NCBI GenBank assembly: GCA_046563655.1
Contig: JAJCTO010000009.1
Location: 372,001-436,000 of the forward strand
DNA: 64,000 bases
Direction of reading: 5' to 3'
From: Yuukianura sp. NJ FZ-2021
Lineage: Eukaryota
Shown here: positions 25,850 to 64,000 of the stretch, one piece after another
Layout: each line of letters starts with the position of its first letter
How positions within the stretch are numbered: the first letter of the stretch is position 1
Made by a program: the position numbers and the translations under genes
Notes under the pieces: generated by a model
Databases searched by the model: none
The model's input: only the letters and a program-made list of their open reading frames with translations
What the model was told of the DNA's origin: nothing

Positions 25850-26392
25850 TTAGGTTACCCTACTGAGTTACCTCTTAGGTTACCCTACTGAGTTACCTTT
25901 GACTGTAGGTTACCCTACTGGGTTACCTTTGACAGTAGGTTACCCTACTGGGTTACCTTTGACAGTAGGTTACCCTACTGGGTTACCTTTGACCGTAGGT
26001 TACCCTACTGGGTTACCTTAGGTTACTCTACTGAGTTACCCTAGGCCGTAGGTTACCCTACTGGGTTACCTTAGGTTACTCTACTGAGTTACCCTAGGCC
26101 GTAGGTTACCCTACTGGGTTACCTTAGGTTACTCTACTGAGTTACCCTAGGCCGTAGGTTACCCTACTGGGTTACCTTAGGTTACTCTACTGAGTTACCC
26201 TAGGCCGTAGGTTACCCTACTGGGTTACCTTAGGTTACTCTACTGAGTTACCTTAGGCCGTAGGTTACCATACTGGGTTACCTTAGGTTACTCTACTGAG
26301 TTACCTTAGGCCGTAGGTTACCCTACTGGGTTACCTTAGGTTACTCTACTGAGTTACCTTGGGCCGTAGGTTAGGTAATATTTAGGTTACTC
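25850..26392. repeat. GGTTACC/TTAGG-based minisatellite (30-bp units, then 50-bp units)
   Basis: Units such as taggttaccctactgggttaccttaggttactctactgagttaccctaggccg repeat in tandem upstream of LINE ORF1. Confidence 0.95.
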
Positions 26393-35729: not shown

Positions 35730-35773
35730 CTTCTGGAGACGCACGTCTACGACGTGCTGAAGAAGACTATTGA
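35634..35773 (+). mobile_element. Two tandem HINE 5'-end fragments abutting satellite B
   Basis: tagtcttctggagacgcacgtctacgacgtgctgaagaagactattga occurs at about 35638 and again at about 35726, and the second copy runs directly into the satellite monomer. Confidence 0.8.
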
Positions 35774-44700: not shown

Positions 44701-47700
44701 ATGTTACACCAGCGACTGGACTTCAGTTTGTGGAAAACCCACTTTTAGTTTTTTGCAGACGCATGTCTGCGATAGGCTGTGGAAGACTATTGATACAAAT
44801 TTGTCGGTGTCGTGTTTTTAGGGCCCTTTGCACTGGAGTACTTAAGGCGGAACAGTCGAATATGTTTCACGTAGAGCTAGTTTCTAGCGCGGTCTCTGTC
44901 TTGCTAATCTAACGTAAGTTTCAGCGTAAGTAGGTTACGGCAATGATTTTGAAACCTCAGTGCGGCTTAGTATATCAAGTTACAACGTATCTGAGTAGCC
45001 TGCTCTAACATTTCTCTTTGTATCAAATTTAAGTGGAAAGTTTCCCGGCCATTTGACAAATTCATTGTCAAACGCGTCACATGGCATCATAACACAGTTT
45101 GTATGTTACACCAGCGACTGGACTTCAATTTGTGGAAAACCCACTTTTAGTGTTTTGCAGACGCATGTCTGCGACAGGCTGTGGAAGACTATTGATACAA
45201 ATTTGTCGGTGTCGTGTTTTTAGGGCCCTTTGCGGTGGAGTACTTAAGGCGGAACAGTCGAATATGTTTCTCATAGAGCTAGCTTCTAGCGCGGTCTCTG
45301 TCTTGCTAATCTAACGTAAGTTTCAGCGTAAGTAGGTTACGGCACTGATTTTGAAACCTCAGTGCGGGTTAGTATATCAAGTTACAACGTATCTGAGTAG
45401 CCTGCTCTAACATTTCTCTTTGTATCAAATTTAAGTGGAAAGTTCCCCGGCCATTTGACAAATTTATTGTCAAACGCGTCACATGGCATCATAACACAGT
45501 TTGTATGTTACACCAGCGACTGGACTTCAATTTGTGGAGAACCCACTTTTAGTTTTTTGCAGACGCATGTCTGCGATATGCTGTGGAAGACTATTGATAC
45601 AAATTTGTCGGTGTCGTGTTTTTAGGGCCTTTTGCACTGGAGCACTTAAGGCGGAACAGTCGAATATGTTTCACATTGAGCTAGCTTCTAGCGCGGTCTT
45701 TGTCTTGCTAATCTAACGTAAGTTTCAGCGTAAGTGGGTTAGGGCACTCATTTTGAAACCTCAGTGCGGCTTAGTATATCAAGTTACAACGTATCTGAGT
45801 AGCCTGCTCTAACATTTCTCTTTGTATCAAATTTAAGTGGAAAGTTTCCCGGCCATTTGACAAATTCATTGTCAAACGCGTCACATGGCATCATAACACA
45901 GTTTGTATGTTACACCAGCGACTGGACTTCAATTTGTGGAAAACCCACTTTTAGTCTTTTGCAGACGCATGTCTGCGACAGGCTGTGGAAGACTATTGAT
46001 ACAAACTTGTCGGTGTCGTGTTTTTAGGGCCCTTTGCACTGGAGTACTTAAGGCGGAACAGTCGAATATGTTTCACGTAGAGCTAGTTTCTAGCGCGGTC
46101 TCTGTCTTGCTAATCTAACGTAAGTTTCAGCGTAAGTAGTTTACGGCACTGATTTTGAAACCTCAGTGCGGGTTAGTATATCAAGTTACAACGTATCTGA
46201 GTAGCCTGCTCTAACATTTCTCTTTGTATCAAATTTAAGTGGAAAGTTTCCCGGCCATTTGACAAATTCATTGTCAAACGCGTCTCATGGCATCATAACA
46301 CAGTTTGTATGTTACACCAGCGACTGGACTTCAATTTGTGGAAAACCCACTTTTAGTCTTTTGCAGACGCATGTCTGCGACAGGCTGTGGAAGACTATTG
46401 ATACAAACTTGTCGGTGTCGTGTTTTTAGGGCCCTTTGCACTGGAGTACTTAAGGCGGAACAGTCGAATATGTTTCACGTAGAGCTAGTTTCTAGCGCGG
46501 TCTCTGTCTTGCTAATCTAACGTAAGTTTCAGCGTAAGTAGTTTACGGCACTGATTTTGAAACCTCAGTGCGGGTTAGTATATCAAGTTACAACGTATCT
46601 GAGTAGCCTGCTCTAACATTTCTCTTTGTATCAAATTTAAGTGGAAAGTTCCCCGGCCATTTGACAAAATTATTGTCAAACGCGTCACATGGCATCATAA
46701 AACAGCTTGTATGTTACACCAGCGACTGGACTTCAGTTTGTGGAAAACCCACTTTTAGTTTTTTGCAGACGCATGTCTGCGATAGGCTGTGGAAGACTAT
46801 TGATACAAATTTGTCGGTGTCGTGTTTTTAGGGCCCTTTGCACTGGAGTACTTAAGGCGGAACAGTCGAATATGTTTCACGTAGAGCTAGTTTCTAGCGC
46901 GGTCTCTGTCTTGCTAATCTAACGTAAGTTTCAGCGTAAGTAGGTTACGGCAATGATTTTGAAAACTCAGTGCGGCTTAGTATATCAAGTTACAACGTAT
47001 CTGAGTAGCCTGCTCTAACATTTCTCTTTGTATCAAATTTAAGTGGAAAGTTTCCCGGCCATTTGACAAATTCATTGTCAAACGCGTCACATGGCATCAT
47101 AACACAGTTTGTATGTTACACCAGCGACTGGACTTCAATTTGTGGAAAACCCACTTTTAGTGTTTTGCAGACGCATGTCTGCGACAGGCTGTGGAAGACT
47201 ATTGATACAAATTTGTCGGTGTCGTGTTTTTAGGGCCCTTTGCGGTGGAGTACTTAAGGCGGAACAGTCGAATATGTTTCTCATAGAGCTAGCTTCTAGC
47301 GCGGTCTCTGTCTTGCTAATCTAACGTAAGTTTCAGCGTAAGTAGGTTACGGCACTGATTTTGAAACCTCAGTGCGGGTTAGTATATCAAGTTACAACGT
47401 ATCTGAGTAGCCTGCTCTAACATTTCTCTTTGTATCAAATTTAAGTGGAAAGTTCCCCGGCCATTTGACAAATTTATTGTCAAACGCGTCACATGGCATC
47501 ATAACACAGTTTGTATGTTACACCAGCGACTGGACTTCAATTTGTGGAAAACCCACTTTTAGTCTTTTGCAGACGCATGTCTGCGACAGGCTGTGGAAGA
47601 CTATTGACACAAACTTGTCGGTGTCGTGTTTTTAGGGCCTTTTGCACTGGAGTACTTAAGGCGGAACAGTCGAATATGTTTCATATTGAGCTAGCTTCTA

Positions 47701-47920
47701 GCGCGGTCTTTGTCTTGCTAATCTAACGTAAGTTTCAGCGTAAGTGGGTTAGGGCACTCATTTTAAAACCTCAGTGCGGCTTAGTATATCAAGTTACAAC
47801 GTATCCGAGTAGCCTGCTCTAACATTTCTCTTTGTATCAAATTTAAGTGGAAAGTTTTCCGGCCATTTGACAAATTTATTGTCAAACGCGTCACATGGCA
47901 TCATAACACAGTTTGTATGT
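35774..47920. repeat. Satellite B: 400-402-bp tandem array (about 30 monomers)
   Basis: The monomer catttctctttgtatcaaatttaagtggaaag...gagtagcctgctctaa repeats every 400-402 bp. Confidence 0.99.
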
Positions 47921-48325
47921 TGTAGAGCCCCGGTTTTCCCCCATTAGGTTAGGGTCAGTTGCCCCTTGAGGTTAGGGTGTGGCCCTAGATTAGTGTTAGG
48001 TTAGTGTAGTTAGGCTTTAGTGTAGTTTAGCCTGTAGTGAGATTTGGTTTGGCGTTTTAGCGCGAGTTTCGAGTAGAGTTGGCGTGGTAGAGGAGAGAGA
48101 GGCTGGTTGTGCCAGTCAGTCGGTTTTTGGTGTTTGGTTCAGCATGAGCTGAGACTTTGTATCATTGTGTACAAATAAATATCTTTTATATTTATTTGTC
48201 TCTGTGTCTTTGTGTTGTTCCTTGGTGTCCCTTTTGGTCCTCAGTTTTGTTGCATGAGTCCGGCAGTGCTCGGATCGTAGTCTGGAGGCCATCTTTGGCA
48301 GTTTGGCGTAGCACGAGGTGCTACA
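47921..48325 (+). repeat. Gypsy 5' LTR
   Basis: tgtagagccc...gaggtgctaca, identical by eye to 62339-62743. Confidence 0.98.
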
Positions 48326-48327
48326 CA

Positions 48328-48337
48328 TGGCGACCGT
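48328..48337 (+). promoter_or_regulatory. Primer binding site, tRNA-Arg-like
   Basis: TGGCGACCGT lies 2 nt after the LTR and matches the tRNA-Arg type PBS known from insect mdg1/412-type elements. Confidence 0.75.
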
Positions 48338-48566
48338 TTTGTGAGTGTTACTGCTGAGGTCAAAGGTCACAATGGTGTAACAACACATGGTGAGTGTTTA
48401 AAAACTTTTATTCTGTGTCACGTGGGATCAAGACATCATGTAATTGTTCGTGTGTGGACGTTACCCTTGGTCAAAGGGAATTGGCCATAATTCAGAAGTG
48501 GATCATCTCTAAATCTTGTACATAGAAGGAGGAAGTTGCCGAAACAACTTCCACTGGATCCACTCC

Positions 48567-50099
48567 ATGTCAGACAGAAAACCAGTAAGTAAAGAATTAA
48601 AAAATTTGGAAATTGATCCTACAGTGACATTTAAGCTACCAGAGCTTAGTCCAACATCAGATTCGGAAGGACCATTCCTCCGAAGTCAAGAAAGTAAGAT
48701 TCCGACTCCAAGTACATCCCCAAAAATCATTGTCAGTGCTCCCGGTTCATCAGTAACCATGGCAACATACACCAAGGAGGAAGTTGACAGATTAGTGGCC
48801 GAGGCCGTGGCCCATGCTGTGCGCGGCGTGGAGCAGAGATTAGTTCAGCGGGTGACCGGTGGAGTCGCTGCGGTGACTCCAGCCCCTGCGGAGGCAGATC
48901 CAGTTGGTCAGACCCAAGCATTGATAACAGCATTGAAGAGCATCAAGTTCACATCTTTATCATCTAAATTGCCTGTGCCGAGTTTTGATCCTAAGAAGAT
49001 GTCAGCGGCAGGCTACCTTAATGAAGTAGAGCGTTACTTCACTGCTCAAGGACATGAGCAAAGGCAGTTTCTTTATCTTGTGAAGACGGTCTTGCCTGTT
49101 GAATCTCAACCATGGCTTGACCACATCCTAGTGACAGTGACAGACTGGGATTCATTCAAAGACGCATTTATCAGCAGATATGATAATTGGATGGACGTGG
49201 CAGAACGAACGAGGCTTCTGCACACAAGAAGACAACTGTTCAACGAGTCTGTTGAATTTTATTTGTATGATGTGGTTCGTTGCTCCAGATTAATTTATCC
49301 ACATGAGTCAGTGGCTGATGCAGTGCTACGTGCTAAATTAGGTTTGAATCCGAGGATTCGCACAGCCCTTGGAACTCAACAATTCGACACAGTGGAATCA
49401 CTTTTTGATGCATGTCGAATTGCACATGCAAATTTGACAGCAGAAGACAGAATCACAAAAAACAAATTCGGATTACCTCCAATTGTCAAGGTCGACTCAA
49501 AGTCAGATTCACTTAAGAAAGATGATAATTCCACTAATTCGAATGCTGGAAGTTCTGCTGGAACTTCCAATGGGAATAATTGGTTTCGTGGGAAGGAAGC
49601 TAAGAATAATGGCTTCCGTGGAAACTGGAAAGGCAAGGGAAATGGCTACAAGAATTATTCCAGTGATCAATCCCCGACTAATGGAAGTAATGGAAGTCTG
49701 AACAGTGGACATTCCTCATCTCAACCCAATGACCAGTCACAAGGTCAAAGTTCAAAATCCAATTATGACAAGAATTCAGTGCAGCCTCAAAATGATTCAT
49801 CTGCACGTGGGAAGGGCGGTTACCGTGGTAATCGTGGTTCTTCTAATGACAACGACCGTGGTGGTGGTCAAGGCAGAGGTCAAGGCCAGACCTCTAGGCA
49901 AGACTTAAGTGATGTTCAGTGCTTCAAGTGTAATGGTTTCGGGCATCGTAAGTTTCAGTGTCCATCAGGTGTTGGTTTGGCTTTAGGGTCATTTCCTGAG
50001 GAGGTCCCTCAAGGACCTCCAGTTCCAAAGAAGAAGAAGGAGCCACCTGAAAAACATGAAGCGTCGACTTCTAATGAGAAGTTAAACGCGCAGTGGTGA
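48567..50099 (+). CDS. gag: Gypsy Gag (capsid-like region, CCHC zinc knuckle)
   Basis: Retrotransposon-gag-like segment (WDSFKDAFISRY...Q..NESVEFY), an RGG/Asn-rich region and CFKCNGFGHRKFQC. The first ATG (MSDRK) is taken as the start. Confidence 0.9.
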   Translation: MSDRKPVSKELKNLEIDPTVTFKLPELSPTSDSEGPFLRSQESKIPTPSTSPKIIVSAPGSSVTMATYTKEEVDRLVAEAVAHAVRGVEQRLVQRVTGGVAAVTPAPAEADPVGQTQALITALKSIKFTSLSSKLPVPSFDPKKMSAAGYLNEVERYFTAQGHEQRQFLYLVKTVLPVESQPWLDHILVTVTDWDSFKDAFISRYDNWMDVAERTRLLHTRRQLFNESVEFYLYDVVRCSRLIYPHESVADAVLRAKLGLNPRIRTALGTQQFDTVESLFDACRIAHANLTAEDRITKNKFGLPPIVKVDSKSDSLKKDDNSTNSNAGSSAGTSNGNNWFRGKEAKNNGFRGNWKGKGNGYKNYSSDQSPTNGSNGSLNSGHSSSQPNDQSQGQSSKSNYDKNSVQPQNDSSARGKGGYRGNRGSSNDNDRGGGQGRGQGQTSRQDLSDVQCFKCNGFGHRKFQCPSGVGLALGSFPEEVPQGPPVPKKKKEPPEKHEASTSNEKLNAQW

Positions 50100-53000
50100 A
50101 TGAGAAGTCGTCCATCATTCACCCTACCTTAGTTCAAGTTTCGGACGATTTAATTCCTTTTGTGACTGTGGCGAATGAAGATTCGAAATTTTTGGCTATT
50201 TTCGACACGGGATGTTCGCAGTCACTCATTGATGTACAGTTATGTGAAAAGTTGCAGTCAGTTGTAGTTCCATTAAAAAATAAATCTACAACAATGATGA
50301 ATAGTCAGAAGCTGCGTCTCATTGGCTTCTGTTTTGTGTATATAAAAATTGGTGGTCGAACTTTCAAGTCAAAGTTTTTTGTGGCCGAGGGTTTGCCAGT
50401 TAAGTGTGTGTTAGGTTCTGATTTTTGTTTTCAGAACGACATTGTAATTAGATTGAGAAGTAAGGAGTTTTGGTTTGGTGACAATGGAAGTCAGAAATTC
50501 AAATTGACTTCCACTACAGAAACAACCGGTACTGCGTTGTTTTCAGTGGCTTTACCAGAAAGTCACAATCAAGATAGTGAAGTGAAAGTGAGAGTTCAGC
50601 GTGTTCTAGAGAAATTTCCAACGGTCGTCCGGAGTGATGGGAAGTTGGGAAGGACGGACCTGACTCATCATGTCATAGAAGATGAAGGGTGTGTAGTTGA
50701 TCGCGGCCATAAGATGTGCAGAATTCAAGTGAGAATGGATTTGAAATGATGTGAACGATGTTGAGATGAATCCAGTAATGTCAAATAAACCAATTACTTT
50801 TAATTAAATACTTAAATGAAAAGAAAAACAATTAATTGAAAGTTGAATTGAAAGATCGAATTGAATTGTTAGAGAATTCTAAGACTGATTTAATTGTGTA
50901 TGTATTCTATGCTATGTACTATTGTTGAAGACGTGGAGCTGACGTGGAGGAATAGGCGGAGCAAGTAATGCGCATAACTAAGCTCCTGCTCTTTCCACTT
51001 CTTAATACTACACTTAAATCTATAGGAGAAGTGTTGAAATTAAAGAGAAAATAATTCTGACGCTAACGCCAGAACACCGGCCCCCATTTGGACACTAGGG
51101 TCCAAATCAAAATAAAATAGAATTGAAAAAGTTACAAGTTCAAATCTGAAGGAGTTGAAAGTGGATTGAGAAGAGGATAAGCAGTTTGGTGATTTGGTGA
51201 CCCAGGAGGTGGACTAGGTCTCCTTTCCAGCCAAGCGGAACTGGATTATTGGCCTTTGCTAGACCCTACACCAAATGCCTCTCCAGGATTGAAAGATATA
51301 GAAATTGATGTTCAGATCTGAAATTGTATCAAAAATAGAATTGAAATTACTCGAAAGTGGCCTTGTTCTGGTGTTGCACCTTAACCTAAAATACCCATTA
51401 ATCTAAAACTCTACAATTACGCTACTTTAAGTGGTAAATTGAAAAGTTAAAATTAAGAATACACTAAAATGAATAAAATTATTGCAGTTACGGATCTGGA
51501 GATAGAAGTGGACAGATTTTGACAATTGGTCGTTTGAATGTATGTAGTTTTGGCTTCTTGGTTTTCTCATCGAATGTAGTGTACTTCACTTCAACAGTGC
51601 GGACAAGATCATCGTTTCCTGGGAAGACTGCAGTGACTCTGGCCATCTTCCATTTGAGTGGTGGATGATTGTCATCTTTCAGCAGCACTAATTCTCCGAT
51701 TTTGACATTTTCAGTAGGTGAATCCCACTTCCTCCGTTCTTGAAGAGTATGAACGTACTCAATACTCCATTTCTTCCAAAAGTGTTCCAAGATGAACTGG
51801 ACATGCTGCCACCGAGACAAACGATTCTCCTTGAGGTGGAGTAGACTTGGTTCCGGTATGGCAGTGAGAGGACGACCGATTAGGAAATGACCAGGAGTGA
51901 GTACTTGAAAATCATCCGGATCATCTGACATGGCATAGAGTGGTCTGGAGTTGAGAACTGATTCGATCATGGCTAGGATGGTGTAGAACTCTTCCAGTGT
52001 CAGACATTGAGTTCCCACGGTACGTTTAAGATGAAACTTGGTAGATTTGACACAAGCTTCCCAGAGTCCACCCATGTGTGGAGCGTTTGGTGGGTTCAGC
52101 TTCCACTCTATCCCTTGGTTGCCTAAAAAATCGCTAATTTCATCATTAGACTTTTCCAATAGACTAACCCATTCAGACATTTCGTTTTTGGCTCCGACGA
52201 AGTTACTTCCACAGTCAGAGTAGATTGCAGTCGGTAATCCTCGTCGTGCTACGAACCGCTTCAAAGTGCCAATGAAAGTCTCAGTGTCGAGGCCTGTTAC
52301 CGGTTCAATGTGAACCGCTTTGGTACTAAAACAAATGAAAACACAAAAGTACACATCAAATTGTTTTTTACCTCTACCCTTGGTTTCTGATGCTTTCATT
52401 GGTCCTCCAAAGTCAAGTCCAGTGTGACTAAATGGTGGTGATGGGGTTACTCGTGGTTTTGGTAGATTTCCCATCAGCTGACTGTAAGTTTTGGCACGGA
52501 GCCTTTTGCACATTATGCATTGATGGAGCTGCTGACGAACAGTGACACGGGCTCGAATGATCCAAAATTGCTGTCGTAGGCTACTCCACAGTAGTTGATA
52601 ACTGGCGTGATGCAGTTTGATGTGGTAATTCCAAATGATCAGTCTGGTCAATGGGTGATTTCCAAACAGAATCAATTGATGTTTCTTCTCCTCTGGTTCT
52701 TGTGAGTTTTTGAGTCTTCCACCGACTCTTAGGATACCGTCCTTGTCCAAAAATGGGCTGAGATAGGATAATTGACTACGATTAGACAATTCTTTTCCGA
52801 CTTTCAGTTTCTTGATCTCTTTGCCGTAACACTCTCGTTGAGCCTCCCGGATGGAGATTATGAATCCATGGTGGATTTCAGTAGCTGAAAGTGGTCCAGT
52901 TGAACGATTTCCAGTTTTTGAATTCCTACAGTTGCTAATAAATCGTAAGACATACGCCATGGCTCGTTTAAGCCGAATGACATTAGAAAACCTTTCAAAC

Positions 53001-56000
53001 ATGGATGAATTGATTAAACCCAAATTGACCATTACTTTTTCACCTTTTAATTCCAAGTCAGGCTCACTTACTTCCCCCGACTCAAAATTAGGTAATTTTA
53101 CAGACTCACATAGAAATGACGGTCCTTTGAACCAGAGATTTGAGTTGATTAGTTCCTCTGCTGGGATTCCTCGTGTCCCAAGATCAGCAGGGTTGATTTT
53201 ACCAGGAATAAATCTCCATGACTCGGCAGGGAGTACGTCCTGGATTTCTGAAATTCGATTGGCGACGAATGTTTTGAACTTACGAGACCGGTTTCGTAGC
53301 CAATGTAGTACAATTTCACTGTCGCTCCAGCAAGTGATGGGACATTGGAGTTTCAGAGCTTCAGTGACTTGAGTCATCAGTCGTGTCAGGAGAAGGGCTC
53401 CACAGAGTTCCAGACGAGGAATTGAGATTTGTTTGATTGGAGCTACCTTCGTCTTGGCAGCGATGATGTTAGTGTAGATTTCGTTTCCACGAATCGAGCG
53501 GGCGTAGACAACTGCACAGTAAGCAGATTCGGATCCATCCGAGAATCCGTGGAGCTCCACGAACTCAGCAGTGCCTAAAAACAGGAACCTGGGGATTCTA
53601 ACATTCTCAATTAGTTTTACCCCTTGTTCAAAGTCGATCCATGGTTGAAGTAAGGCTCGAGGTATCTCTTGGTCCCACGTTAGGATGTGACTCTTTCCAT
53701 CGGTTTCAACTGGTGTCCAAAGTTTCTGGAAGTAGAGTTTAATTGACACAGTGAACGGAGATAACATACCGAGTGGGTCGAAGACACGGCTCATGGACGA
53801 AAGTACAGAGCGTTTAGTAGCTTTTTCTTCGGCTACTGGTGTGTATCCAGAGAAATGAAAGACGTCATCGGTTGAATTCCAACAAACACCTAAAGCTCGG
53901 ACATGATTAGAATCTGATTTTACACTAGGATTTTTACCACGTAGAGTTTCTGGAATGAAGTTGAGTAGTTCAGAGTCGTTTGAGTCCCACTGCCGGATTT
54001 CAATATTGGATGATTCCAATAACTTGGAGAGCTCATTGTAGATTTGAACTCCCTCGGCCGTAGACTTTGCATTTCCAAGGAGATCATCAACGTAGAATCT
54101 TTCCCTAAGGACCTCCGCCCCCTTTGGAAATGCCTGAGAATTGGAATTAGCAATTTCATTCAAACACCTTACCGCAAGGAATGGCGCTGAACTAGTGCCG
54201 TAAGTGACCGTTTTGAGACGGTACTCTTTGACTGGTTCTGACTCTGACGTTCTCCAGAAAATCCTTTGATAGTCTTGATGAGATTTTGAAATTCCAAACT
54301 GACGGTACATCTTTGTAATGTCCGCCTTAAGAGCGATCGGGTCTGACCTAAAATTGATTAAGTGCGCAAAAATGTCTTTTTGCACCGTTGGACCTACCAA
54401 TTGACACTCGTTGAAAGTAATTCCGGTTGTTGTCTTTGCTGAGCCATCGAAGACAACACGAAGTTTGGTAGTACTGGAAGTCTCCTTCAGTACAAAATGA
54501 TGAGGAAGGTAGTTAGTTTTACCAATTTTCTCACCACACTCGGAGTCTGGAATTGGTTCCATGTGACCCAGTTCTTCGTATTGCTCCATGAAGCGATGGT
54601 ACTCGGGTTTCAGATCCGGAAATTGCTTTAGTCGCTTCTCGAGATTATAGAATCTCCGTAATGCCATGGTTCTAGACCCACCTAAAATGTCAATCTTGGG
54701 ATTAAATGGAAAACTTACTTGGAGTCTACCATCTTCTCCTTTAGTGTGAGTTTGAACAAAGTGTTTTTCAGCGTCATCTTCGTCTTTGGTGAGGTGAGGA
54801 CGATTTGGTACATCCTCAATTTCCCAAAACTTTGGAATTGGATCCTCGGTCACAATTTGGATGTGATGAGATGAAACAGACCTAGAAGGAAAGTTAATTG
54901 GACCAGATACAACCCACCCGAATTTTGTTTCCTCAGCAATTGGTTGAGTAAGCGGTCCTTCTGATCTCTTCCCCGTCTTAAGGTAAGCGACAAACTCAGC
55001 ACCCATCAGAATGTCAATGTCTCCTGGCTCCAGAAAATGGGGGTCAGCTAATCGCAGATTTGAGATGTGACTCCATTCCATTTTCTCACATTTGAATGAG
55101 GGAATTGTACCTGTGATTTTGTTAAGCACTAGAGCATTGACATTTACATGAAAATTAGTTACCCGAGAATTGACAATGAAATTTACCTCACCAAGTGCCT
55201 TACCGACACTTGCACCTGACACTCCAGTAATTGAAACGTTGGACTTAGTTTTGATTAAACCAAGTCGTTTGACACAATCATTTGTGATCATACTTGATTC
55301 AGAGCCCTGATCAAGCAGAACACGACATTGAACCAACTCACCATCAGAGTCCATGACGTCAACCACTGCCGTAGAGAGTAAGACTCTAGCAGACGATGAT
55401 TGAAGTGAATTGGTTGTTGACCCTTGAGATGAAGTTGATGGAGCAGTAGATTTGTTGTCATCTGATTTTTCAAAATGAAGCGTGGTGTGATGACGGCCTT
55501 TACATTTTAGGCACCGGAACTTTCCTTTGCAGTCCTTGCCCCAATGACCTGATTTTAAGCAGTTTATGCACAATGACTTACTTCCCACGAATTTTGAACG
55601 TTCCTCCGTTGACAATTTCAGATAATCCCCACATTTGTAGAGACCATGATCTGTGGACTGGCACATTGGGCATTTTCGCAGAGGTTGAGTTGGTCTGGAA
55701 GATTCAGTAGGCAATGATGACACCGATTGATTTGATTCCGATACGGTAGGCTTGGATGCCACATTAGCCTTCTTCTCTGCTGGTTTTCCACCCTCTGAAT
55801 TTGATTTGGTTGTTGTGGTGGTAGACGCAAGCAGACCTCTAACGTAATCTTCCAAAAATTCCATGACTTCTGCCAATTTTGGTACATTGGTCCCTTTGAG
55901 AGACTTTGCCCAGTCCCTTTTGCATTCTGGAGGGAGACGTTCCACTAGATGAAAAACTAAAATCGAATCCCACGAATTAACAGGCTCCTTTAGATTTGAT

Positions 56001-59000
56001 AAGGATCTGCAACACTCATTGAAATTGTCAATTAGTTTCCTGAGATTCTGGGAATTCTCATTGGTGATTGGTTTTGTGCTCAGCAGTTGTTTGAGAATTG
56101 AGAACACAATTTCCCGGTTGTTCTCATATCTGGATTTCACCAAATTCCATGCTTCTTCAAAATTGTTGTTTGTACTGCTGAAGTTGCGAATGATTAGTTC
56201 AGCCTCGCCCTTGAGAGTAGGTTTGAGGTAGCCGAACTTCTCACATCCCGAGAGTTGATTGTTTTCAACGATGTAAGTGGTTATGAGATCACGGTAGGCT
56301 GGCCACTTCTCATACCTTCCATCAAATGTGGGTAGTTCAAGTTTTGGTAGCTTGACCCTTGACCCAGCAGTGGCAGAGGCGGCAGCTTGTGACTCAATTG
56401 AATACAAGACATCATTGATTTGGTCAATCATTTCGTTGCTCACGTTAGCAGCAGTAGCTTGAGCCATGACTTGAGCATCGTTCTGACAGCAGGCGAAGAG
56501 AGACGAACTCAACTCGGAGAGAGACGACTCCAGTTTGGTTAGTTTTCTTCTGTCGGAAGCGATGACTGATTTTGTGGCCTTACTCGGGTCATCTGCATAT
56601 TCAGTGACCTTGTTGAAGAGGAATTGAATGTTGATATCGAGTCCCTTGTGCATCATGCGTAGTCTGGTCATTTCAGGATCTATCGTTGGAATAGCGATTG
56701 ATTTGGAGGATGATGCAGACTCGGTAGTTTTCGACTTAGTAACGACTGGTACGGGGATTCTTGGAGCAGTTTGTGGATTGACTTCAGTTGACACTGGTGG
56801 TGTCACCGGATCCTCCTCTGTTTGAGATCTAAGTTTTGATTTAGACCGAGTCTCCATTCCTTCTGTATTGTTGTCTGACATACTGAAACTACTCACTCAA
56901 ATGGCGAAAGTTAAACACACCTACAACCTTTAATGTTAGGTCAATTGATTAATGCTCGTTGGTTACTGATACCGGTTACCAAAGATCCAACGAACCGTCT
57001 TTCGGCACCATGTAGTTGATCGCGGCCATAAGATGTGCAGAATTCAAGTGAGAATGGATTTGAAATGATGTGAACGATGTTGAGATGAATCCAGTAATGT
57101 CAAATAAACCAATTACTTTTAATTAAATACTTAAATGAAAAGAAAAACAATTAATTGAAAGTTGTATTGAAAGATCGAATTGAATTGGTAGAGAATTCTA
57201 AGACTGATTGAATTGTGTATGTATTCTATGCTATGTTCTATTGTTGAAGACGTGGAGCTGACGTGGAGGAATAGGCGGAGCAAGTAATGCGCATAACTAA
57301 GCTCCTGCTCTTTCCACTTCTTAATACTACACTTAAATCTATAGGAGAAGTGTTGAAATTAAAGAGAAAATAATTCTGACGCTAACGCCAGAACAGGGTG
57401 TCCGCCAGCAAGGAACCCTTACAGAAGGTCCCCAGAAATGCAAAAGATCATCAATGATCAAATCCAAGAAATGTTGAAGGAAGGTCTAATCAGACCTTCA
57501 AGGTCACCGTATGCAGCTCCAGTTGTGGTGGTACCAAAGAAAGACGGCAGTAAAAGGCTCTGTGTGGACTATACGTTGCTCAACCAGCAAACGAAGACGA
57601 ATGCTGCGCCTATGGAGAGTGCTCATTCCATTTTACACACAATTCCTGCTGGTTATTGGTACACAGTGATTGATCTTGCGAAAGGATATTGGCAAGTCAA
57701 GTTGCATCCGGACAGTGTAGAAAAGTCAGCGTTTGTGACTCAAGATGGCCACTACGAGTTTTTAGTGATGCCATTCGGATTAAAAAACAGTCCAAAGACG
57801 TGTCAGCAGTTGATGCGGAAAGTCATCCAAGGATTCTCCAAGTTTGCAAAGTGCTACATGGACGATATCATTTTGTTCAGTAAGACTCTGGATGAACATT
57901 TAGTGCATTTGGAAAAAGTGCTGAGTAGGTTGAAGATGGCAGGACTCACCATCAGTCCTCAGAAGTTGCAGTGTTGTAGGAGAGAGGTTGATGTGTTGGG
58001 CCATCGTTTGACAGAACATGGTCTTCAAAAGTGTCCTAAAAAAGTGAGTGCCATAGTGGATTTTCCTACTCCGAAGAACGTCAAAGAAGTGCAAAGTTTC
58101 CATGGAATGACTCAGTGGTATGCTCCGTTTATTGAACATTTTGCTGCAAAGGCAGAGCCACTGTACCGACTTCTAAGGAAGAATCAACCATGGGTTTGGG
58201 GAGCAGAACAGGAGAAGTCGTTCCAGTCACTAAAAGAGTCAATGTGCAATGATGTGATGTTACATGCAGTTGACTACGACCATCCGATTTTGTTAAAGTG
58301 CGATGCGTCGAATTATGGGTTGGGTGCGGCCTTAACTCAAGTGATTAATGGTGTGGAGAGACCAGTGATGTTTATCAGTAAAACACTCCGAAAATCAGAA
58401 ATTCGGTACCACATTTATGAAAAAGAGTTGTTCGCGATTATTTGGGCCTACCGGAAGCTCAGAGAATACATTGAAGGTCAGAAGTTCACAATTATAACTG
58501 ACAACAAAGCCTTATCATTCCTCAACAAGATGAAGGAGCGGAAAGCAAAATTGGCTTTGTGGGATTCGGAGATCAAGTCATGGGGTGTCGACATCAAGCA
58601 TCGCTCCGGGAAGGATAATGTGGAGGCGGACGCGCTTTCACGTGCTCCAGTTCCTGTCGATGAAGCGGACCTCGATTTTGAAGATGATTCCCCGGCGTAC
58701 ATGTACTCGCCAACGGCCGTGGCGTTACTGTCGTTTGATACTCCTACGATCCAGAGGATGAAAGACGAACAACGAAGAGATCCTGATTTAGTGAAAGTGA
58801 TCAGTGACATTGAAAGTGGTAAAAGTGTAAAAAGTTACGTCCTAAAGAATGGCGTACTAGGCAGAGAAGTCAAGAGTTTTGACTTCTATTCCGATAATGG
58901 TTTCTGCGGAGACATTATCGAGGGGCGGTGTGCGGAAACGAGGCCTCAATCTTCCGACATCACTCTAGAGGACGTTGACAAAAAAGAGTTCAGCAGTTCC

Positions 59001-60248
59001 TCAGCTCCTAAAAGTGAGCTCATTCAGGTGCCAGTGGTACCAAGGGTCATGATACCCGAAATAATGAAGTTACTTCATGATGTGCCAGAAGCAGCGCATC
59101 TTGGCATCAAAGCCACAAAAGTAAAAATCAAGAGAAGATTTTTCTGGAAAAACATGAATAAGGACATCAGTGATTATGTAAAATCGTGTCCAGTTTGTCA
59201 AGCGGTCAAGTCTTGCAACTACAAGCCCTTTGGTTTACTTCAAGCAGTGGTGCCTCCAACTAAAGTGTTTGAGAAAATCTACATCGATTTTCTAGGGCCC
59301 CTGCCAAGATCTTCAAATCAAAATGAGTATTTGTTCGTCGTGGACGACGATTTATCCAAGTGGGTGGAGTTATTCCCGATGCGGAAAGCAAAATCGAAAA
59401 AAGTTGTGCAAGTGTTAGTGGATGAAATTTTTTGTCGTTATGGTACTCCGAAAACAGTTGTGTCGGACAATGGAAGCCAATTTTTCTCCAAAGTGATGAT
59501 TAAAATGGCTAAGGACTGGAAGATCAACCATGTTCCTGTTAGTCCGTACCATGCGCAAGCTAACACAGTCGAAAGGGTCAATCGGAACCTTAAGCCTATG
59601 CTCCAGGCTTATGTCGACAAGAATCATAGATCATGGGACCAGCATCTCCAGAAGTTCGCGTTGGCTCTTAGAACTTCTGTACATTCGACTACTAAAGTGA
59701 CTCCTGCGTTACTAAATTTAGGTCGTGAGATTCCGCTGCCCCTTGATAGGAACTTACAAAGTGATGGTGACAGGGAAGTCCGGAAGTTAGGACTTCTACC
59801 TGCTCAATTGGAAGAAATTATTCAGTTCGTGAGGAAGAACATGGAAGAAGCACATGAGCATAATATCAAGAATTATGACTCTAAACATCAAGAAGGAAAC
59901 TTTCAAGTTGGTGATTTAGTGCTTATTAAAAATCATTCGTTGTCAGACAAGAAGAAAGGAATTGCTAAAAAATTAGACCCTCGTTACATTGGTCCATACC
60001 AAATTAGTGAAGTGTTAACCCCAGTGACCTTCAAACTTGTGACATTGCCTGAAAAAACTAATTTTGGAAAGCGTCATGTGTCGGAGTTGAAGCCTTATAC
60101 TGTTCGCACGTCGCAGTTTGCGGTTCCGAAAATTCCCACTAAGTCAGAGGATTGGTCGGACTCGGAAGAGGAAGCGAACTCTGGAGGAAGAACTTTGAGG
60201 AAAAAAGTTCGGCTCAACTATCGCACGCTCGCTGGATACAGAAATTAA
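50078..60248 (+). CDS. pol: Gypsy Pol (PR-RT-RNase H-IN), split by the BEL insertion at 50692-57400
   Basis: Protease FDTGC, RT YMDD, RNase H CDAS/EKELFAI/TDNK, integrase HHCC plus DFLGP/SDNGSQF/ERVNR and a GPY motif. Removing BEL and one TSD restores ...HHVIEDEGCPPARNPYRRSPEMQK... in frame. Confidence 0.95.
50692..57395 (-). mobile_element. Full-length BEL/Pao LTR retrotransposon nested antisense in Gypsy pol; TSD GGGTG
   Basis: 385-bp LTRs at 50692-51076 and 57011-57395. GGGTG is duplicated at 50687-50691 and 57396-57400. Minus-strand PBS TGGTGCCGAAA (tRNA-Phe-like, 57000-57010) and a G-rich PPT at 51077-51086. Confidence 0.97.
51488..56896 (-). CDS. BEL/Pao Gag-Pol polyprotein (about 1800 aa), uninterrupted
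   Basis: KLPKLELPTFDG gag, three Cys/His knuckles, protease LLDQGS, RT YVDD, Pao-type RNase H FSDGS, and integrase (GLDFGGP, SDCGSNF, GGLWE). Confidence 0.97.
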   Translation of the reverse strand: MSSFSMSDNNTEGMETRSKSKLRSQTEEDPVTPPVSTEVNPQTAPRIPVPVVTKSKTTESASSSKSIAIPTIDPEMTRLRMMHKGLDINIQFLFNKVTEYADDPSKATKSVIASDRRKLTKLESSLSELSSSLFACCQNDAQVMAQATAANVSNEMIDQINDVLYSIESQAAASATAGSRVKLPKLELPTFDGRYEKWPAYRDLITTYIVENNQLSGCEKFGYLKPTLKGEAELIIRNFSSTNNNFEEAWNLVKSRYENNREIVFSILKQLLSTKPITNENSQNLRKLIDNFNECCRSLSNLKEPVNSWDSILVFHLVERLPPECKRDWAKSLKGTNVPKLAEVMEFLEDYVRGLLASTTTTTKSNSEGGKPAEKKANVASKPTVSESNQSVSSLPTESSRPTQPLRKCPMCQSTDHGLYKCGDYLKLSTEERSKFVGSKSLCINCLKSGHWGKDCKGKFRCLKCKGRHHTTLHFEKSDDNKSTAPSTSSQGSTTNSLQSSSARVLLSTAVVDVMDSDGELVQCRVLLDQGSESSMITNDCVKRLGLIKTKSNVSITGVSGASVGKALGEVNFIVNSRVTNFHVNVNALVLNKITGTIPSFKCEKMEWSHISNLRLADPHFLEPGDIDILMGAEFVAYLKTGKRSEGPLTQPIAEETKFGWVVSGPINFPSRSVSSHHIQIVTEDPIPKFWEIEDVPNRPHLTKDEDDAEKHFVQTHTKGEDGRLQVSFPFNPKIDILGGSRTMALRRFYNLEKRLKQFPDLKPEYHRFMEQYEELGHMEPIPDSECGEKIGKTNYLPHHFVLKETSSTTKLRVVFDGSAKTTTGITFNECQLVGPTVQKDIFAHLINFRSDPIALKADITKMYRQFGISKSHQDYQRIFWRTSESEPVKEYRLKTVTYGTSSAPFLAVRCLNEIANSNSQAFPKGAEVLRERFYVDDLLGNAKSTAEGVQIYNELSKLLESSNIEIRQWDSNDSELLNFIPETLRGKNPSVKSDSNHVRALGVCWNSTDDVFHFSGYTPVAEEKATKRSVLSSMSRVFDPLGMLSPFTVSIKLYFQKLWTPVETDGKSHILTWDQEIPRALLQPWIDFEQGVKLIENVRIPRFLFLGTAEFVELHGFSDGSESAYCAVVYARSIRGNEIYTNIIAAKTKVAPIKQISIPRLELCGALLLTRLMTQVTEALKLQCPITCWSDSEIVLHWLRNRSRKFKTFVANRISEIQDVLPAESWRFIPGKINPADLGTRGIPAEELINSNLWFKGPSFLCESVKLPNFESGEVSEPDLELKGEKVMVNLGLINSSMFERFSNVIRLKRAMAYVLRFISNCRNSKTGNRSTGPLSATEIHHGFIISIREAQRECYGKEIKKLKVGKELSNRSQLSYLSPFLDKDGILRVGGRLKNSQEPEEKKHQLILFGNHPLTRLIIWNYHIKLHHASYQLLWSSLRQQFWIIRARVTVRQQLHQCIMCKRLRAKTYSQLMGNLPKPRVTPSPPFSHTGLDFGGPMKASETKGRGKKQFDVYFCVFICFSTKAVHIEPVTGLDTETFIGTLKRFVARRGLPTAIYSDCGSNFVGAKNEMSEWVSLLEKSNDEISDFLGNQGIEWKLNPPNAPHMGGLWEACVKSTKFHLKRTVGTQCLTLEEFYTILAMIESVLNSRPLYAMSDDPDDFQVLTPGHFLIGRPLTAIPEPSLLHLKENRLSRWQHVQFILEHFWKKWSIEYVHTLQERRKWDSPTENVKIGELVLLKDDNHPPLKWKMARVTAVFPGNDDLVRTVEVKYTTFDEKTKKPKLHTFKRPIVKICPLLSPDP

Positions 60249-60251
60249 CAC

Positions 60252-62327
60252 GTGCTCTGTCCAGTTATTCTTTTTCAGTGTTTTGGAAGTCATTTCCTGA
60301 CTTCCATCATGCCATCATCCGTCGTTAGTGATGTGGTGCCAGTTAGTGCAAAGAAAAAGAAAACTCAAGATTACTGGAAGAAGAGACGTGAGTGCGAACT
60401 AAAGTATGGTACTGCCGATAAGAGTCCACAGGAACGTAAAGACATGTTTTTATTTGAATCTGCTCAACGGAATTCATGGGATGAATTTCCGTATAAGTAT
60501 CATCCTCACACGTCGCTAGTGAAAGTGTTTCGGTTGTGGGACGCAGTCATGGAGCCTTCAAAACAACAAGTTCAGGACGAAAGACGTTATGTTCCTATTC
60601 GTATTATTGATACGGAGGCTAAGTTCATGGTTATGCTTGGTTTGTTGAGAGCTGAACGAGTTATAGGTGTGGACATGGAGTTTAGTCATGACAAAGGCTA
60701 TCGTGATCGTTATGTTTGTTCATTGCAGATTTCGACCAAGGAATCGGATTTCATCATTGATCCATTTGAAGTGCCTATTCAGATGCAGATGTTACGTGAG
60801 GTGTTCTCCAATGGCAATTATGTCAAGATTATGCATGGCAGTGTTAATGACCTACTCATGTTCCAGCTTCATTACCATATCTTCTTCGTGGGTGTAATCG
60901 ACACGCAAATTGTGGATTCTGTCTTTGGAGGGACTCAAGGACGTGGATTGGACAAAGTGATTAGTGACTACTTGCCTGGTGTGAAAGTGAGCAAGGATTG
61001 TCAACTTGCTGACTTCAGGATCCGTCCAATTGAAAACATGCATCCAGACATGATACAATACGCCAGGAGTGACACACATTTGTTATTACGTGTGTTTGAA
61101 GTCATGAAGCAACGTTATGACTTCAAAAGTGAAAGTGTTAAGTGGAATGAGGTTGTCAAATTATGTAACGATTTGTGCTTAAAAGTCTATAAGTTTAAGC
61201 AGCATCCAAGTGCCCGTGAGATTCTGGCTAAAGTGGACATGCCCACTTTAAGTGTAAGTGTGATGGAGCAAGTTGTCGGCTGGAGAGACATGGTTGCCAG
61301 GGAGATGGACGTTCAACCAAAAGAAGTCATTGCGGACATTACTTGTGCTCAATTGGTTAAGGAAGTGCCAAAAGATAAGTTAAGTGTGGAGAAAGTGATT
61401 GGCAAAAATGTTTTGTCATCTGGTCATTTGGATATGCTAATTCCCATTTTTGTGTCTACTAAAATAGTGGGTGGAGTCACAGAAGTTGGTGCTACAACTT
61501 CTACGGTGCAAAAAGTGACTCTGGATTTATCCGTTTTTGATTGGGATACACCAATCACTAAAGAAGATGTAAAAAGAATGGAACAGGAAGTTGCTCAATC
61601 AACTTCCAAAAGTGTAAATTTTCCTGCTACAGTGCCAAAAGTGACATTGGATTTGTCTGCTTTCGACTGGGATACGCCAGTCACAAGAGAAGATATTGCC
61701 AGGATGGAGGCGGAAGTCGCACAAACGACTTCCCAAAATGTACATAGTGGTGCTCCAGTGTGTGTTGACATTGATGGTTTATCGGATGTTTCCGATTTGT
61801 CAGATGTTTCTGACCAACCATTGGAGGAGGACGAAGAGGAGTCTCAAGTGGAAGTGGAATGTGCAGTGGAGGAATTCATGGATAGTGATGATGGTGACAT
61901 GCTGATTGTCACAGTTTCTGAAGATGATCTTCGTGAGGTGGTAGGATTACCACAAGAAGAGAATCCGAATGCGGTTTACGAACCACAAGTTCCACCGGAA
62001 GAGCCCGAAGAAGTGATGGATGCTGCCGAGGAGGAGCCGCAGGAGGAAGTAGCTGCAGCCGAAGGAAGAGATCGGCGAGATCGGCGAAACTGTCCCCACT
62101 GTGGAAGCGAGCGGCATACCGATGTGATGTTTTGCCGCTTTCGTCATTTGCCGGAAGCAGAGGCCAGGAAACGTCATCGGAGGCGACGGCTCAACATGAA
62201 TCGCCGTCGGAATCAGCGTATTCGTGCCGAGGAAGAGCGTTTGCAACGAGAAGCAGACCGTGCAGCCAGAGAAGCGGAGGAAGATGGAGCTCGTGTCCCG
62301 AGGATTGCCCCGGAACCCGATCTTTAG
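60252..62327 (+). CDS. Gypsy ORF3: RRP6/EXOSC10-like DEDD-Y 3'-5' exoribonuclease, HRDC-like domain, acidic tail and basic Zn-knuckle-like C-terminus
   Basis: GVDMEF...CSLQIST...DFIIDP...KIMHGSVND...IDTQ...QLADFRIRP...YARSDTHLLL parallels the RRP6 exonuclease motifs (AVDLEH, CLMQIST, HGADSD, QLADWRIRP, YARDDTHYLL). VVGWRDMVAREMDVQPKEVI parallels the HRDC start. The ORF lies between the pol stop and the PPT. First ATG at 60309. Confidence 0.88.
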   Translation: MLCPVILFQCFGSHFLTSIMPSSVVSDVVPVSAKKKKTQDYWKKRRECELKYGTADKSPQERKDMFLFESAQRNSWDEFPYKYHPHTSLVKVFRLWDAVMEPSKQQVQDERRYVPIRIIDTEAKFMVMLGLLRAERVIGVDMEFSHDKGYRDRYVCSLQISTKESDFIIDPFEVPIQMQMLREVFSNGNYVKIMHGSVNDLLMFQLHYHIFFVGVIDTQIVDSVFGGTQGRGLDKVISDYLPGVKVSKDCQLADFRIRPIENMHPDMIQYARSDTHLLLRVFEVMKQRYDFKSESVKWNEVVKLCNDLCLKVYKFKQHPSAREILAKVDMPTLSVSVMEQVVGWRDMVAREMDVQPKEVIADITCAQLVKEVPKDKLSVEKVIGKNVLSSGHLDMLIPIFVSTKIVGGVTEVGATTSTVQKVTLDLSVFDWDTPITKEDVKRMEQEVAQSTSKSVNFPATVPKVTLDLSAFDWDTPVTREDIARMEAEVAQTTSQNVHSGAPVCVDIDGLSDVSDLSDVSDQPLEEDEEESQVEVECAVEEFMDSDDGDMLIVTVSEDDLREVVGLPQEENPNAVYEPQVPPEEPEEVMDAAEEEPQEEVAAAEGRDRRDRRNCPHCGSERHTDVMFCRFRHLPEAEARKRHRRRRLNMNRRRNQRIRAEEERLQREADRAAREAEEDGARVPRIAPEPDL

Positions 62328-62338
62328 AAGGAGGAAGG

Positions 62339-62743
62339 TGTAGAGCCCCGGTTTTCCCCCATTAGGTTAGGGTCAGTTGCCCCTTGAGGTTAGGGTGTGG
62401 CCCTAGATTAGTGTTAGGTTAGTGTAGTTAGGCTTTAGTGTAGTTTAGCCTGTAGTGAGATTTGGTTTGGCGTTTTAGCGCGAGTTTCGAGTAGAGTTGG
62501 CGTGGTAGAGGAGAGAGAGGCTGGTTGTGCCAGTCAGTCGGTTTTTGGTGTTTGGTTCAGCATGAGCTGAGACTTTGTATCATTGTGTACAAATAAATAT
62601 CTTTTATATTTATTTGTCTCTGTGTCTTTGTGTTGTTCCTTGGTGTCCCTTTTGGTCCTCAGTTTTGTTGCATGAGTCCGGCAGTGCTCGGATCGTAGTC
62701 TGGAGGCCATCTTTGGCAGTTTGGCGTAGCACGAGGTGCTACA
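62339..62743 (+). repeat. Gypsy 3' LTR
   Basis: Identical by eye to 47921-48325 and preceded by the PPT. Confidence 0.98.
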
Positions 62744-64000
62744 ATGTTACACCAGCGACTGGACTTCAATTTGTGGAGAACCCACTTAGTTTTTTGCAGA
62801 CGCATGTCTGCGATATGCTGTGGAAGACTATTGATACAAATTTGTCGGTGTCGTGTTTTTAGGGCCTTTTGCACTGGAGCACTTAAGGCGGAACAGTCGA
62901 ATATGTTTCACATTGAGCTAGCTTCTAGCGCGGTCTTTGTCTTGCTAATCTAACGTAAGTTTCAGCGTAAGTAGTTTACGGCACTGATTTTGAAACCTCA
63001 GTGCGGCTTAGTATATCAAGTTACAACGTATCTGAGTAGCCTGCTCTAACATTTCTCTTTGTATCAAATTTAAGTGGAAAGTTTCCCGGCCATTTGACAA
63101 ATTCATTGTCAAACGCGTCACATGGCATCATAACACAGTTTGTATGTTACACCAGCGACTGGACTTCAATTTGTGGAAAACCCACTTTTAGTTTTTTGCA
63201 GACGCATGTCTGCGACAGGCTGTGGAAGACTATTGATACAAATTTGTCGGTGTCGTGTTTTTAGGGCCCTTTGCACTGGAGTACTTAAGGCGGAACAGTC
63301 GAATATGTTTCACATTGAGCTAGCTTCTAGCGCGGTCTCTGTCTTGCTAATCTAACGTAAGTTTCAGCGTAAGTAGTTTACGGCACTGATTTTGAAACCT
63401 CAGTGCGGGTTAGTATATCAAGTTACAACGTATCTGAGTAGCCTGCTCTAACATTTCTCTTTGTATCAAATTTAAGTGGAAAGTTTCCCGGCCATTTGAC
63501 AAATTCATTGTCAAACGCGTCACATGGCATCATAACACAGTTTGTATGTTACACCAGCGACTGGACTTCAATTTGTGGAAAACCCACTTTTAGTCTTTTG
63601 CAGACGCATGTCTGCGACAGGCTGTGGAAGACTATTGATACAAACTTGTCGGTGTCGTGTTTTTAGGGCCCTTTGCACTGGAGTACTTAAGGCGGAACAG
63701 TCGAATATGTTTCACGTAGAGCTAGTTTCTAGCGCGGTCTCTGTCTTGCTAATCTAACGTAAGTTTCAGCGTAAGTAGTTTACGGCACTGATTTTGAAAC
63801 CTCAGTGCGGGTTAGTATATCAAGTTACAACGTATCTGAGTAGCCTGCTCTAACATTTCTCTTTGTATCAAATTTAAGTGGAAAGTTTCCCGGCCATTTG
63901 ACAAATTCATTGTCAAACGCGTCACATGGCATCATAACACAGTTTGTATGTTACACCAGCGACTGGACTTCAATTTGTGGAAAACCCACTTTTAGTCTTT
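62744..64000. repeat. Satellite B continues (runs off the window end)
   Basis: The monomer resumes in register at atgttacaccagcgactgg. Confidence 0.98.

Follow-up and report, generated by a model that had tools for sequence, protein, structure and literature searches.

A candidate env-type splice for an Rrp6-like third open reading frame in a Ty3/gypsy retrotransposon of Yuukianura sp. NJ FZ-2021

A single young Ty3/gypsy long terminal repeat (LTR) retrotransposon occupies positions 47921-62743 of the DNA analysed here, a 64-kb stretch of contig JAJCTO010000009.1 of Yuukianura sp. NJ FZ-2021 (hereafter the window). It is inserted in an array of a 402-bp satellite, which lies on both sides of it (35773-47921 and 62744-64000). 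Behind pol the element carries a third open reading frame (ORF3) for an Rrp6-like exonuclease, and the subject of this study is a candidate splice, of the type that produces retroviral env mRNA, by which ORF3 may be expressed. The features are listed in Table 1. The assignment to Ty3/gypsy (Metaviridae) is based on the LTRs, the target duplication, the primer-binding site, the polypurine tract and a gag with a CCHC knuckle, followed by protease, reverse transcriptase, RNase H and integrase in that order. No differences were found between the two LTRs (0/405). The 18-nt extent given for the primer-binding site is the canonical length, and no tRNA gene able to name the primer was found within the window. 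ORF3 and pol lie in one reading frame with a single TAA between them, and pol is interrupted by a nested element of the BEL/Pao group.

Table 1. Features of the Ty3/gypsy element, the nested BEL/Pao element and the candidate splice sites, in window coordinates
Feature	Position	Strand	Remarks
5' LTR	47921-48325	+	405 bp, TGTAG...CTACA; 4-bp target duplication ATGT flanks the element
Primer-binding-site span	48328-48345	+	TGG begins 2 nt past the 5' LTR
Main candidate 5' splice site	48387-48395	+	ATG 48387-48389, then GTGAGT 48390-48395
gag	48567-50099	+	ATG 48567; CCHC knuckle
Protease and 5' part of pol	50078-50691	+	truncated by the nested insertion
BEL/Pao element	50692-57395	-	antisense; open 1802-aa polyprotein; target duplication GGGTG; interrupts pol
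3' part of pol	57396-60248	+	reverse transcriptase, RNase H, integrase, SH3-like; ends ...NYRTLAGYRN, TAA 60246-60248
Candidate 3' splice site	60245-60278	+	pyrimidine tract and CAG at 60265-60278
Spacer stem-loop	60278-60312	+	9-bp stem 60284-60292/60298-60306; 4 outer pairs 60278-60281/60309-60312
ORF3	60309-62327	+	672 aa from its own ATG; frame open from 60249
Polypurine tract	62327-62338	+	shares the last base of the ORF3 stop codon; adjoins the 3' LTR
3' LTR	62339-62743	+	405 bp

An earlier note on this DNA had proposed that a donor in the leader is joined to an acceptor just past the pol stop, and the motifs that it named, including a second GTGAGT at 48341, are present in the sequence. 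The leader ATG and the donor directly behind it (ATG/GTGAGT, the slash marking the splice site) lie 65 nt beyond the LTR and 177 nt upstream of the gag ATG, and the donor agrees with the consensus MAG/GTRAGT at 8/9 positions. On the plus strand of the host part (the 8,118 nt of the Ty3/gypsy element itself), a match of at least 8/9 occurs only at 48390 and 58044. GTRAGT occurs seven times on that strand, twice in the 241-nt leader against about 0.2 expected. The second GTGAGT (48341-48346) was rejected as the main donor: it begins within the canonical primer-binding-site span, 13 nt from the start of that span, none of the 3 exon-side positions matches the consensus, and a join to 60279 gives phase 2, with an 11-codon upstream ORF that stops at 60300. 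A third donor, CCA/GTAAGT (48585-48590), agrees at 7/9 positions and lies six codons past the gag ATG. The whole leader showed no excess folding stability over shuffled sequences (z -0.16).

The acceptor tract, ttattctttttCAG, ends at 60278, midway in the spacer between pol and ORF3 (30 nt from the pol stop on one side and 30 nt from the ORF3 ATG on the other). TTAAC at 60245-60249, which overlaps the pol stop 30 nt upstream of the AG, is what we take to be a branch-like site. On the sense strand of the host part, only 50132 and 60278 are YAG acceptors with at least 15/19 upstream pyrimidines, and the pattern Y10-N-CAG, with one mismatch allowed, is matched only at 60265 and 61619. The sites 48390 and 60278 are therefore the best or joint-best sense-strand sites, and they stand exactly where an env-type splice needs them. 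From the densities in the host part, the leader should contain about 0.06 such donors by chance and the 60-nt spacer about 0.015 such acceptors, and the condition that the join be in frame adds a chance factor of one third; these expectations are rough and were computed after the fact. When the sequence was joined by script from the coordinates, the 48389/60279 product was in phase 0, as the earlier note had it, and open through the ORF3 stop, with 11 residues added before Met-60309. The 48584/60279 join, from donor 48585, is likewise in phase 0 and in frame with ORF3, with 16 residues added. A scan of the spacer for bacterial-type promoters and terminators returned nothing, which is uninformative for a eukaryote.

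These sites suggest the following course of expression. Transcription would begin in the 5' LTR, where the start is expected near AGTCAGTC, an initiator-like motif at 48114-48121 that is also present in the LTR fragment of the sister element described below. One of the 5' splice sites near the start of the transcript would then be used, with 48390 as the first choice and 48585, behind the sixth gag codon, as the second, and it would be joined to the 3' splice site at 60278, so that gag-pol would be removed together with the nested BEL/Pao element as an intron. Translation could begin at ATG-48387 in the leader or at ATG-48567 of gag and continue into ORF3 with the added residues given above, or alternatively it could start on the spliced mRNA at the own ATG of ORF3. 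At the level of sequence, the element thus has both the donor in the leader or at the start of gag and the acceptor before ORF3 that characterize a spliced subgenomic mRNA. We infer site use, the choice of start codon and the passage of the primary transcript through the BEL/Pao element from these features. A singly spliced env-type subgenomic mRNA is in our view the most likely route of ORF3 expression, and we hold with moderate confidence that ORF3 is expressed through the acceptor at 60278; that precisely the 48389/60279 junction is used is a more tentative proposal, on the doubtful side of even.

The earlier note called ORF3 RRP6-like, and the label is apt. The Pfam 3'-5' exonuclease family PF01612 matched ORF3 with an E value of 1.1e-27, and the closest solved structures were yeast Rrp6 and human EXOSC10 (E ~1e-27 to 1e-24 across exonuclease and HRDC). 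In the alignment to Rrp6 the D-x-E, D and Y-x3-D motifs correspond, and the catalytic DEDD-Y residues are intact. HRDC scored 16.9 bits in ORF3 against a Pfam cut-off of 23.8 and was clear in a relative (P0001, 2.7e-09). The complete layout comprises the DEDD-Y exonuclease, the HRDC-like region, a 126-nt tandem duplication, an acidic tract, a CCHC-like knuckle and a basic tail; the duplication (61501-61760) is translated into two 42-residue repeats. When 1.84 billion representative proteins were scanned, 4103 matches were found at E <=0.001 and 15 at E <=1e-30, the best one being P0001 (37% identity). The top matches fall into two groups: stand-alone proteins of 340-620 aa with exonuclease, HRDC, acidic tract, CCHC knuckle and basic tail like ORF3, and, from about rank 13, cellular proteins of the Rrp6 type. 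A PMC2NT domain was present in 6 of the 15 top matches scanned and was not found in ORF3. The possibility that ORF3 is a captured host Rrp6 orthologue was rejected on this account; ORF3 is a gene of a mobile element and not the host Rrp6/EXOSC10 orthologue. Word-indexed protein searches for relatives gave nothing useful (one bacterial HRDC protein, and none among longer proteins), and a protein atlas gave Rrp6-like eukaryotic clusters at 0.88, which is under the 0.9 line and was taken as a lead only.

Eleven relatives were aligned with ORF3 (24-34% identity), of which ten are stand-alone proteins with their first Met aligned to Met-60309. Judged from the alignment, ORF3 is under selection as a separate gene. 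The earlier claim that ORF3 is an expressed gene of the element is supported in part: ORF3 is real and belongs to a conserved exonuclease/HRDC/zinc-knuckle family with its catalytic residues intact, and its expression by the splice is a candidate route.

Relatives of the locus were sought with a two-row alignment pattern in metagenome, viral and prokaryote sequences. The metagenome scan gave one locus (L001, a 3573-nt contig) from 190 pattern matches, the viral contigs gave no relatives from 147 and from 93 matches, and three bacterial RNase D-like loci in prokaryote genomes were set aside as irrelevant. L001 shares 53% identity with the window element in the integrase region of pol and 36% in ORF3. 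Its pol ends in ...NYRTLAGYKN followed by TAA, the same ten residues except for K in place of R, and its ORF3 is in the same frame as pol behind a 36-nt spacer, with the ATG 24 nt after a phase-0 CAG. The layout of pol stop, short spacer with a phase-0 CAG and ATG is thus common to both elements. The last ten pol residues (NYRTLAGY-K/R-N) have been kept through many synonymous changes and the preceding linker has not (window 60246-60311; L001 1654-1695).

The sister element also supplies some of the evidence that weighs against the proposed splice. The earlier note had asked for conservation of the sites in sister elements, and as far as the acceptor in this one sister is concerned, the AG and its phase have been kept and the pyrimidine tract has not: 10/19 upstream positions are pyrimidines in L001 vs 15/19 at 60278. 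The only branch-like site near the L001 CAG is 12 nt away, so that with its poor tract this CAG is a weak acceptor; a better pyrimidine tract precedes 12 other AG sites in L001. No donor at 8/9 positions occurs in the 3.6 kb of L001, a contig that does not include the leader. The residues between acceptor and Met are not conserved (10 codons in the window element vs 8 in L001), so that any extension gained from an upstream ATG would not itself be under selection. In the window element, the proposed intron would be 11,889 nt long in this copy, and five tiny upstream ORFs follow the presumed transcription start, four upstream of the leader ATG and one between the leader and gag ATGs. Since ORF3 starts with an ATG of its own (A at -3), it has no need of an upstream one. 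The exact 48389/60279 reading is weakened by this, by the in-frame alternative donor at 48585 and by the shared frame of pol and ORF3 with one TAA.

A further difficulty may lie in the structure of the spacer. The predicted stem-loop (-15 kcal/mol over 75 nt, z -2.6, none of 200 shuffles as stable) pairs, at its base, the AG of the acceptor with the AUG of ORF3, and this pairing could hinder the use of either one. An analogue is found in L001, where a 14-pair hairpin of unrelated sequence (-14 kcal/mol, 2 of 200 shuffles as stable) has the CAG in its 5' arm and the AUG in its 3' arm. The hairpin starts 30-36 nt past the pol stop in the window element vs 3 nt in L001, and this difference indicates that it is anchored to the AUG and not to the stop.

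The anchoring bears on whether ORF3 could be made from genomic RNA, either fused to Pol, when ribosomes read through the TAA at 60246, or separately, when they terminate there and re-initiate at 60309; in both cases the splice-like motifs would be incidental. A single stop separates pol from ORF3 within one frame in both elements, the spacer lengths differ by 24 nt, a multiple of 3, and one relative (P0005) has the integrase C-terminus and the exonuclease in a single continuous, colinear ORF, from which precisely those 42 residues are missing that in the window element comprise the stop, spacer, ATG and first residues. Fused and separate forms therefore both exist, and the family has other routes of expression, which also counts against the splice. 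However, a shared frame arises by chance in one of three cases per element, and the stop is TAA in both elements. TAA is the least leaky stop codon. The base that follows it differs (C in the window element vs T in L001), the hairpin is anchored to the AUG, and the spacer peptide has not been conserved, unlike the last ten residues of pol. With TAA in both elements, differing downstream contexts and a hairpin anchored to the AUG, read-through is not favoured, and expression of ORF3 from genomic RNA is considered improbable compared with a spliced mRNA.

Another possibility is a separate transcript for ORF3 that would start from a promoter within the end of pol, would not be spliced and would be translated from ATG-60309; the CAG would then belong to an initiator-like TCAGT and not to an acceptor. 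This motif is found in both spacers (TCAGTG at 60275-60280, TCAGTT in L001), but it is short, with roughly 0.05 expected per spacer. The occurrence of AGTCAGTC in the LTRs of both elements, where the start site is expected, agrees with the use of initiators, but the initiator consensus is arthropod-specific and may not be that of the host. The context of the ORF3 ATG is good and the stand-alone relatives start at the aligned Met, both as this possibility would have it. A transcript starting at 60277 would nevertheless have a leader of only 32 nt, folded next to the cap into a hairpin (-12 to -15 kcal/mol) that would disfavour cap-dependent initiation, and neither a TATA box nor a downstream promoter element was seen at the end of pol. 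An internal promoter is thus a poor prospect, about on a par with expression from genomic RNA, and the singly spliced mRNA is preferred over both.

The preferred mRNA would in this copy have to be produced from a transcript that crosses the BEL/Pao element, which lies wholly inside the proposed intron (50692-57395, between 48390 and 60278), as the earlier note had stated. BEL/Pao elements are not known from outside the animals, and the host is accordingly taken to be an animal. The two BEL LTRs (50692-51076 and 57011-57395; 385 bp) show four differences, clustered in 73 bp (50846-50918). Given equal rates, the contrast between 0/405 differences in the host LTRs and 4/385 in those of the nested element has a P value of ~0.015. 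One reading of it is that the composite was copied through RNA after the BEL insertion, which would imply that transcripts are able to cross the insertion. Alternatively, a single conversion event could account for the contrast, as the four differences cluster within so short a segment.

The sense strand within the BEL/Pao element carries AATAAA at 50784, 51111, 51472, 52937, 53207 and 57103, as well as five acceptor-like sites and one donor matching at 8/9 positions (AAG/GTAAGC at 54983). Premature ends and trapped exons are therefore real risks, and they too weigh against the proposed splice. In the extreme case, the splice motifs would be chance matches and this copy would yield no ORF3 product, with transcripts ending or being mis-spliced inside the antisense insertion. 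The copy moreover sits in satellite DNA, which is usually silenced, and the site statistics were obtained after the fact. Against this, the joint placement of donor and acceptor together with the frame (about 0.06 x 0.015 x 1/3) is unlikely to be accidental, and the identical host LTRs around an older-looking BEL/Pao element suggest that the composite has passed through RNA. We regard chance as unlikely, though less so than either of the two alternatives above. This copy may still be able to make ORF3, although the insertion puts that in jeopardy.

The spacer stem-loop is only one of many. Inverted repeats with a perfect stem of at least 7 and a loop of 3-15 were counted and compared with 200 shuffles. 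There were 14 in the 5' part of the host element (47921-50691) against a shuffle mean of 2.3, 22 in its 3' part (57397-62743) against 3.6, and 13 in L001 (1-3573) against 2.6, numbers reached by none of the shuffles in each case. The controls gave 6 against 5.7 for the BEL/Pao element (reached by 108/200 shuffles) and 2 against 2.5 for a LINE-like region (142/200). Short perfect hairpins are thus present in the window element and in L001 at about six times the expected number. In the host element, 12 of the 36 hairpins have a GAAGT/ACTTC stem core. Six of these are stem-loops with the longer core GGAAGT/ACTTCC (48531-48552, 49548-49568, 50485-50513, 60285-60305, 61586-61607 and 61712-61733), and six further ones carry the shorter core. 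The exact pattern GGAAGT-N6-14-ACTTCC occurs five times in the window, always within the element, vs 0.03 expected. Of the hairpins with the GGAAGT core, one precedes the gag ATG by 14 nt and another stands in front of the ORF3 ATG; the two base pairs that adjoin the core show covariation. Three of ten mapped L001 hairpins fall within two alignment columns of a hairpin of the window element (~0.7 expected), two of the three in firmly aligned motifs, and the stem sequences differ between the elements. Neither flanking G-U counts nor sliding-window energies gave a signal as to which strand forms the hairpins.

Several further structures and repeats were seen. The hairpins in the two copies of the ORF3 repeat differ by two changes that compensate each other. 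Directly upstream of gag, the leader holds a 13-nt copy (48523-48535) of the polypurine-tract sequence (62325-62337), which overlaps the 5' arm of the pre-gag hairpin. The LTR contains a 12-bp perfect hairpin (48171-48199 and 62589-62617) with AATAAA in its 5' arm and a GT-rich run after it, and in the LTR fragment of L001 one hairpin has AGTAAA in its loop (3524-3546) and a second, at 3477-3499, lies over the AGTCAGTC motif.

With such a density throughout the element, the presence of a hairpin in each spacer is not very surprising alone (roughly 0.2 each), and a link between the spacer hairpin and ORF3 expression can only be offered as a hypothesis. The hairpins, which in this clade would be spread over the entire element and its coding regions alike, might be working sites for the exonuclease/HRDC/zinc-knuckle protein of the element or for Gag, in the binding, 3'-end protection or processing of RNA or cDNA, with the hairpin that pairs AG and AUG gating the amount of ORF3; we consider this quite improbable, slightly more so than an internal promoter or read-through. 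If it were true, the hairpins and the protein encoded by the same element would constitute a new cis/trans system in a retroelement. No report of hairpin enrichment in LTR elements was met among the matches listed in a limited search of the literature. The excess is common to both elements, it could bear on the substrate of the nuclease, and it is a more unusual observation than the candidate splice.

Beyond the element, the entire 64-kb window looks heterochromatic and rich in repeats. A 253-bp satellite covers 1-14191 with ~56 copies (96% match), and a minisatellite with a 53-nt unit lies at 25851-26373. Two 47-nt units (18220-18266 and 35136-35182) are internally palindromic, and the one is the exact reverse complement of the other. 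The ~17 kb between them contain a LINE-like reverse transcriptase/endonuclease region (21274-24079, minus strand), a Tc5-transposase-like ORF (28251-29645) and a C2H2 zinc-finger ORF. The paired units may be the terminal inverted repeats of a large DNA transposon. An Rfam scan of the window gave no match.

Stop-codon read-through is known from gammaretroviruses, in which gag and pol are two ORFs in one frame with one stop between them and a structure downstream. The window element and L001 resemble this in the frame, but the stop is TAA and not TAG, the spacing of the structure is not conserved, and the ORFs are pol and ORF3 and not gag and pol. Rrp6/EXOSC10 provides the best solved-structure match over the exonuclease and HRDC regions, but of the combination of PMC2NT, exonuclease and HRDC that marks an orthologue, PMC2NT was not found in ORF3, which also lacks the exosome-association tail and has a zinc knuckle instead.

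A post-pol ORF3 with a DEDDy 3'-5' exonuclease domain is what defines a known group of LTR elements. DEDDy exonuclease has been named as a known accessory domain (PMC6338049), and DEDDy exonuclease ORF3s are described from LTR elements of bdelloid rotifers (PMC5408684). By description, the rotifer elements Juno and Vesta resemble the window element in being LTR elements with an RNase D/Rrp6-like DEDDy ORF3 instead of env. In the rotifer ORF3 the motif has changed to DEED (PMC5408684), whereas DEDD-Y is intact in the window element, and the ORF3 family described here adds, again compared by description, the HRDC region, the C-terminal CCHC knuckle and the basic tail. The authors, who were the first to describe Rrp6-like exonucleases in retroelements, further state that ORF3s of LTR elements are typically expressed as separate spliced units, and raise RNA 3'-end processing and interference with small-RNA silencing as possible roles of these exonucleases (PMC5408684). 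None of four splice terms looked for occurs in an eLife paper (PMC13524379).

In Caenorhabditis elegans, Cer1 joins exons in the gag frame to a post-pol ORF other than env, CERV (PMC10309623). The start in the gag frame is comparable to the alternative donor after gag codon 6 in the window element. CERV differs, on the same source, in being a five-exon product of unrelated sequence and without a known enzymatic domain, the splice of which has been verified experimentally.

The closest parallel is Drosophila gypsy, to which the earlier note had appealed. Its env is made from a spliced subgenomic RNA whose start codon is assembled by the splice itself, the 5' site supplying AT and the 3' site G, as PMC2585583 bears out; PMC13669377 agrees and reports the env acceptor of errantiviruses to be very well conserved. 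Like gypsy, the window element is of the Ty3/gypsy type and has a third ORF behind pol, with a donor close to the transcript start and an acceptor immediately ahead of ORF3. It differs in that the whole ATG stands before the donor, that ORF3 encodes an exonuclease with its own ATG and not an envelope protein, that the splice is a candidate only, and that the acceptor is weak in its one sister. If the splice is real, an enzymatic accessory gene would be expressed like retroviral env, which would extend the env-type subgenomic strategy to nuclease cargo, and the defined junction would let ORF3 expression be measured apart from genomic RNA. A copy that possibly still makes ORF3 despite its interrupted pol would be a natural case of separated functions. 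The candidate splice described here is a well-placed, putative instance of a strategy known from these elements.

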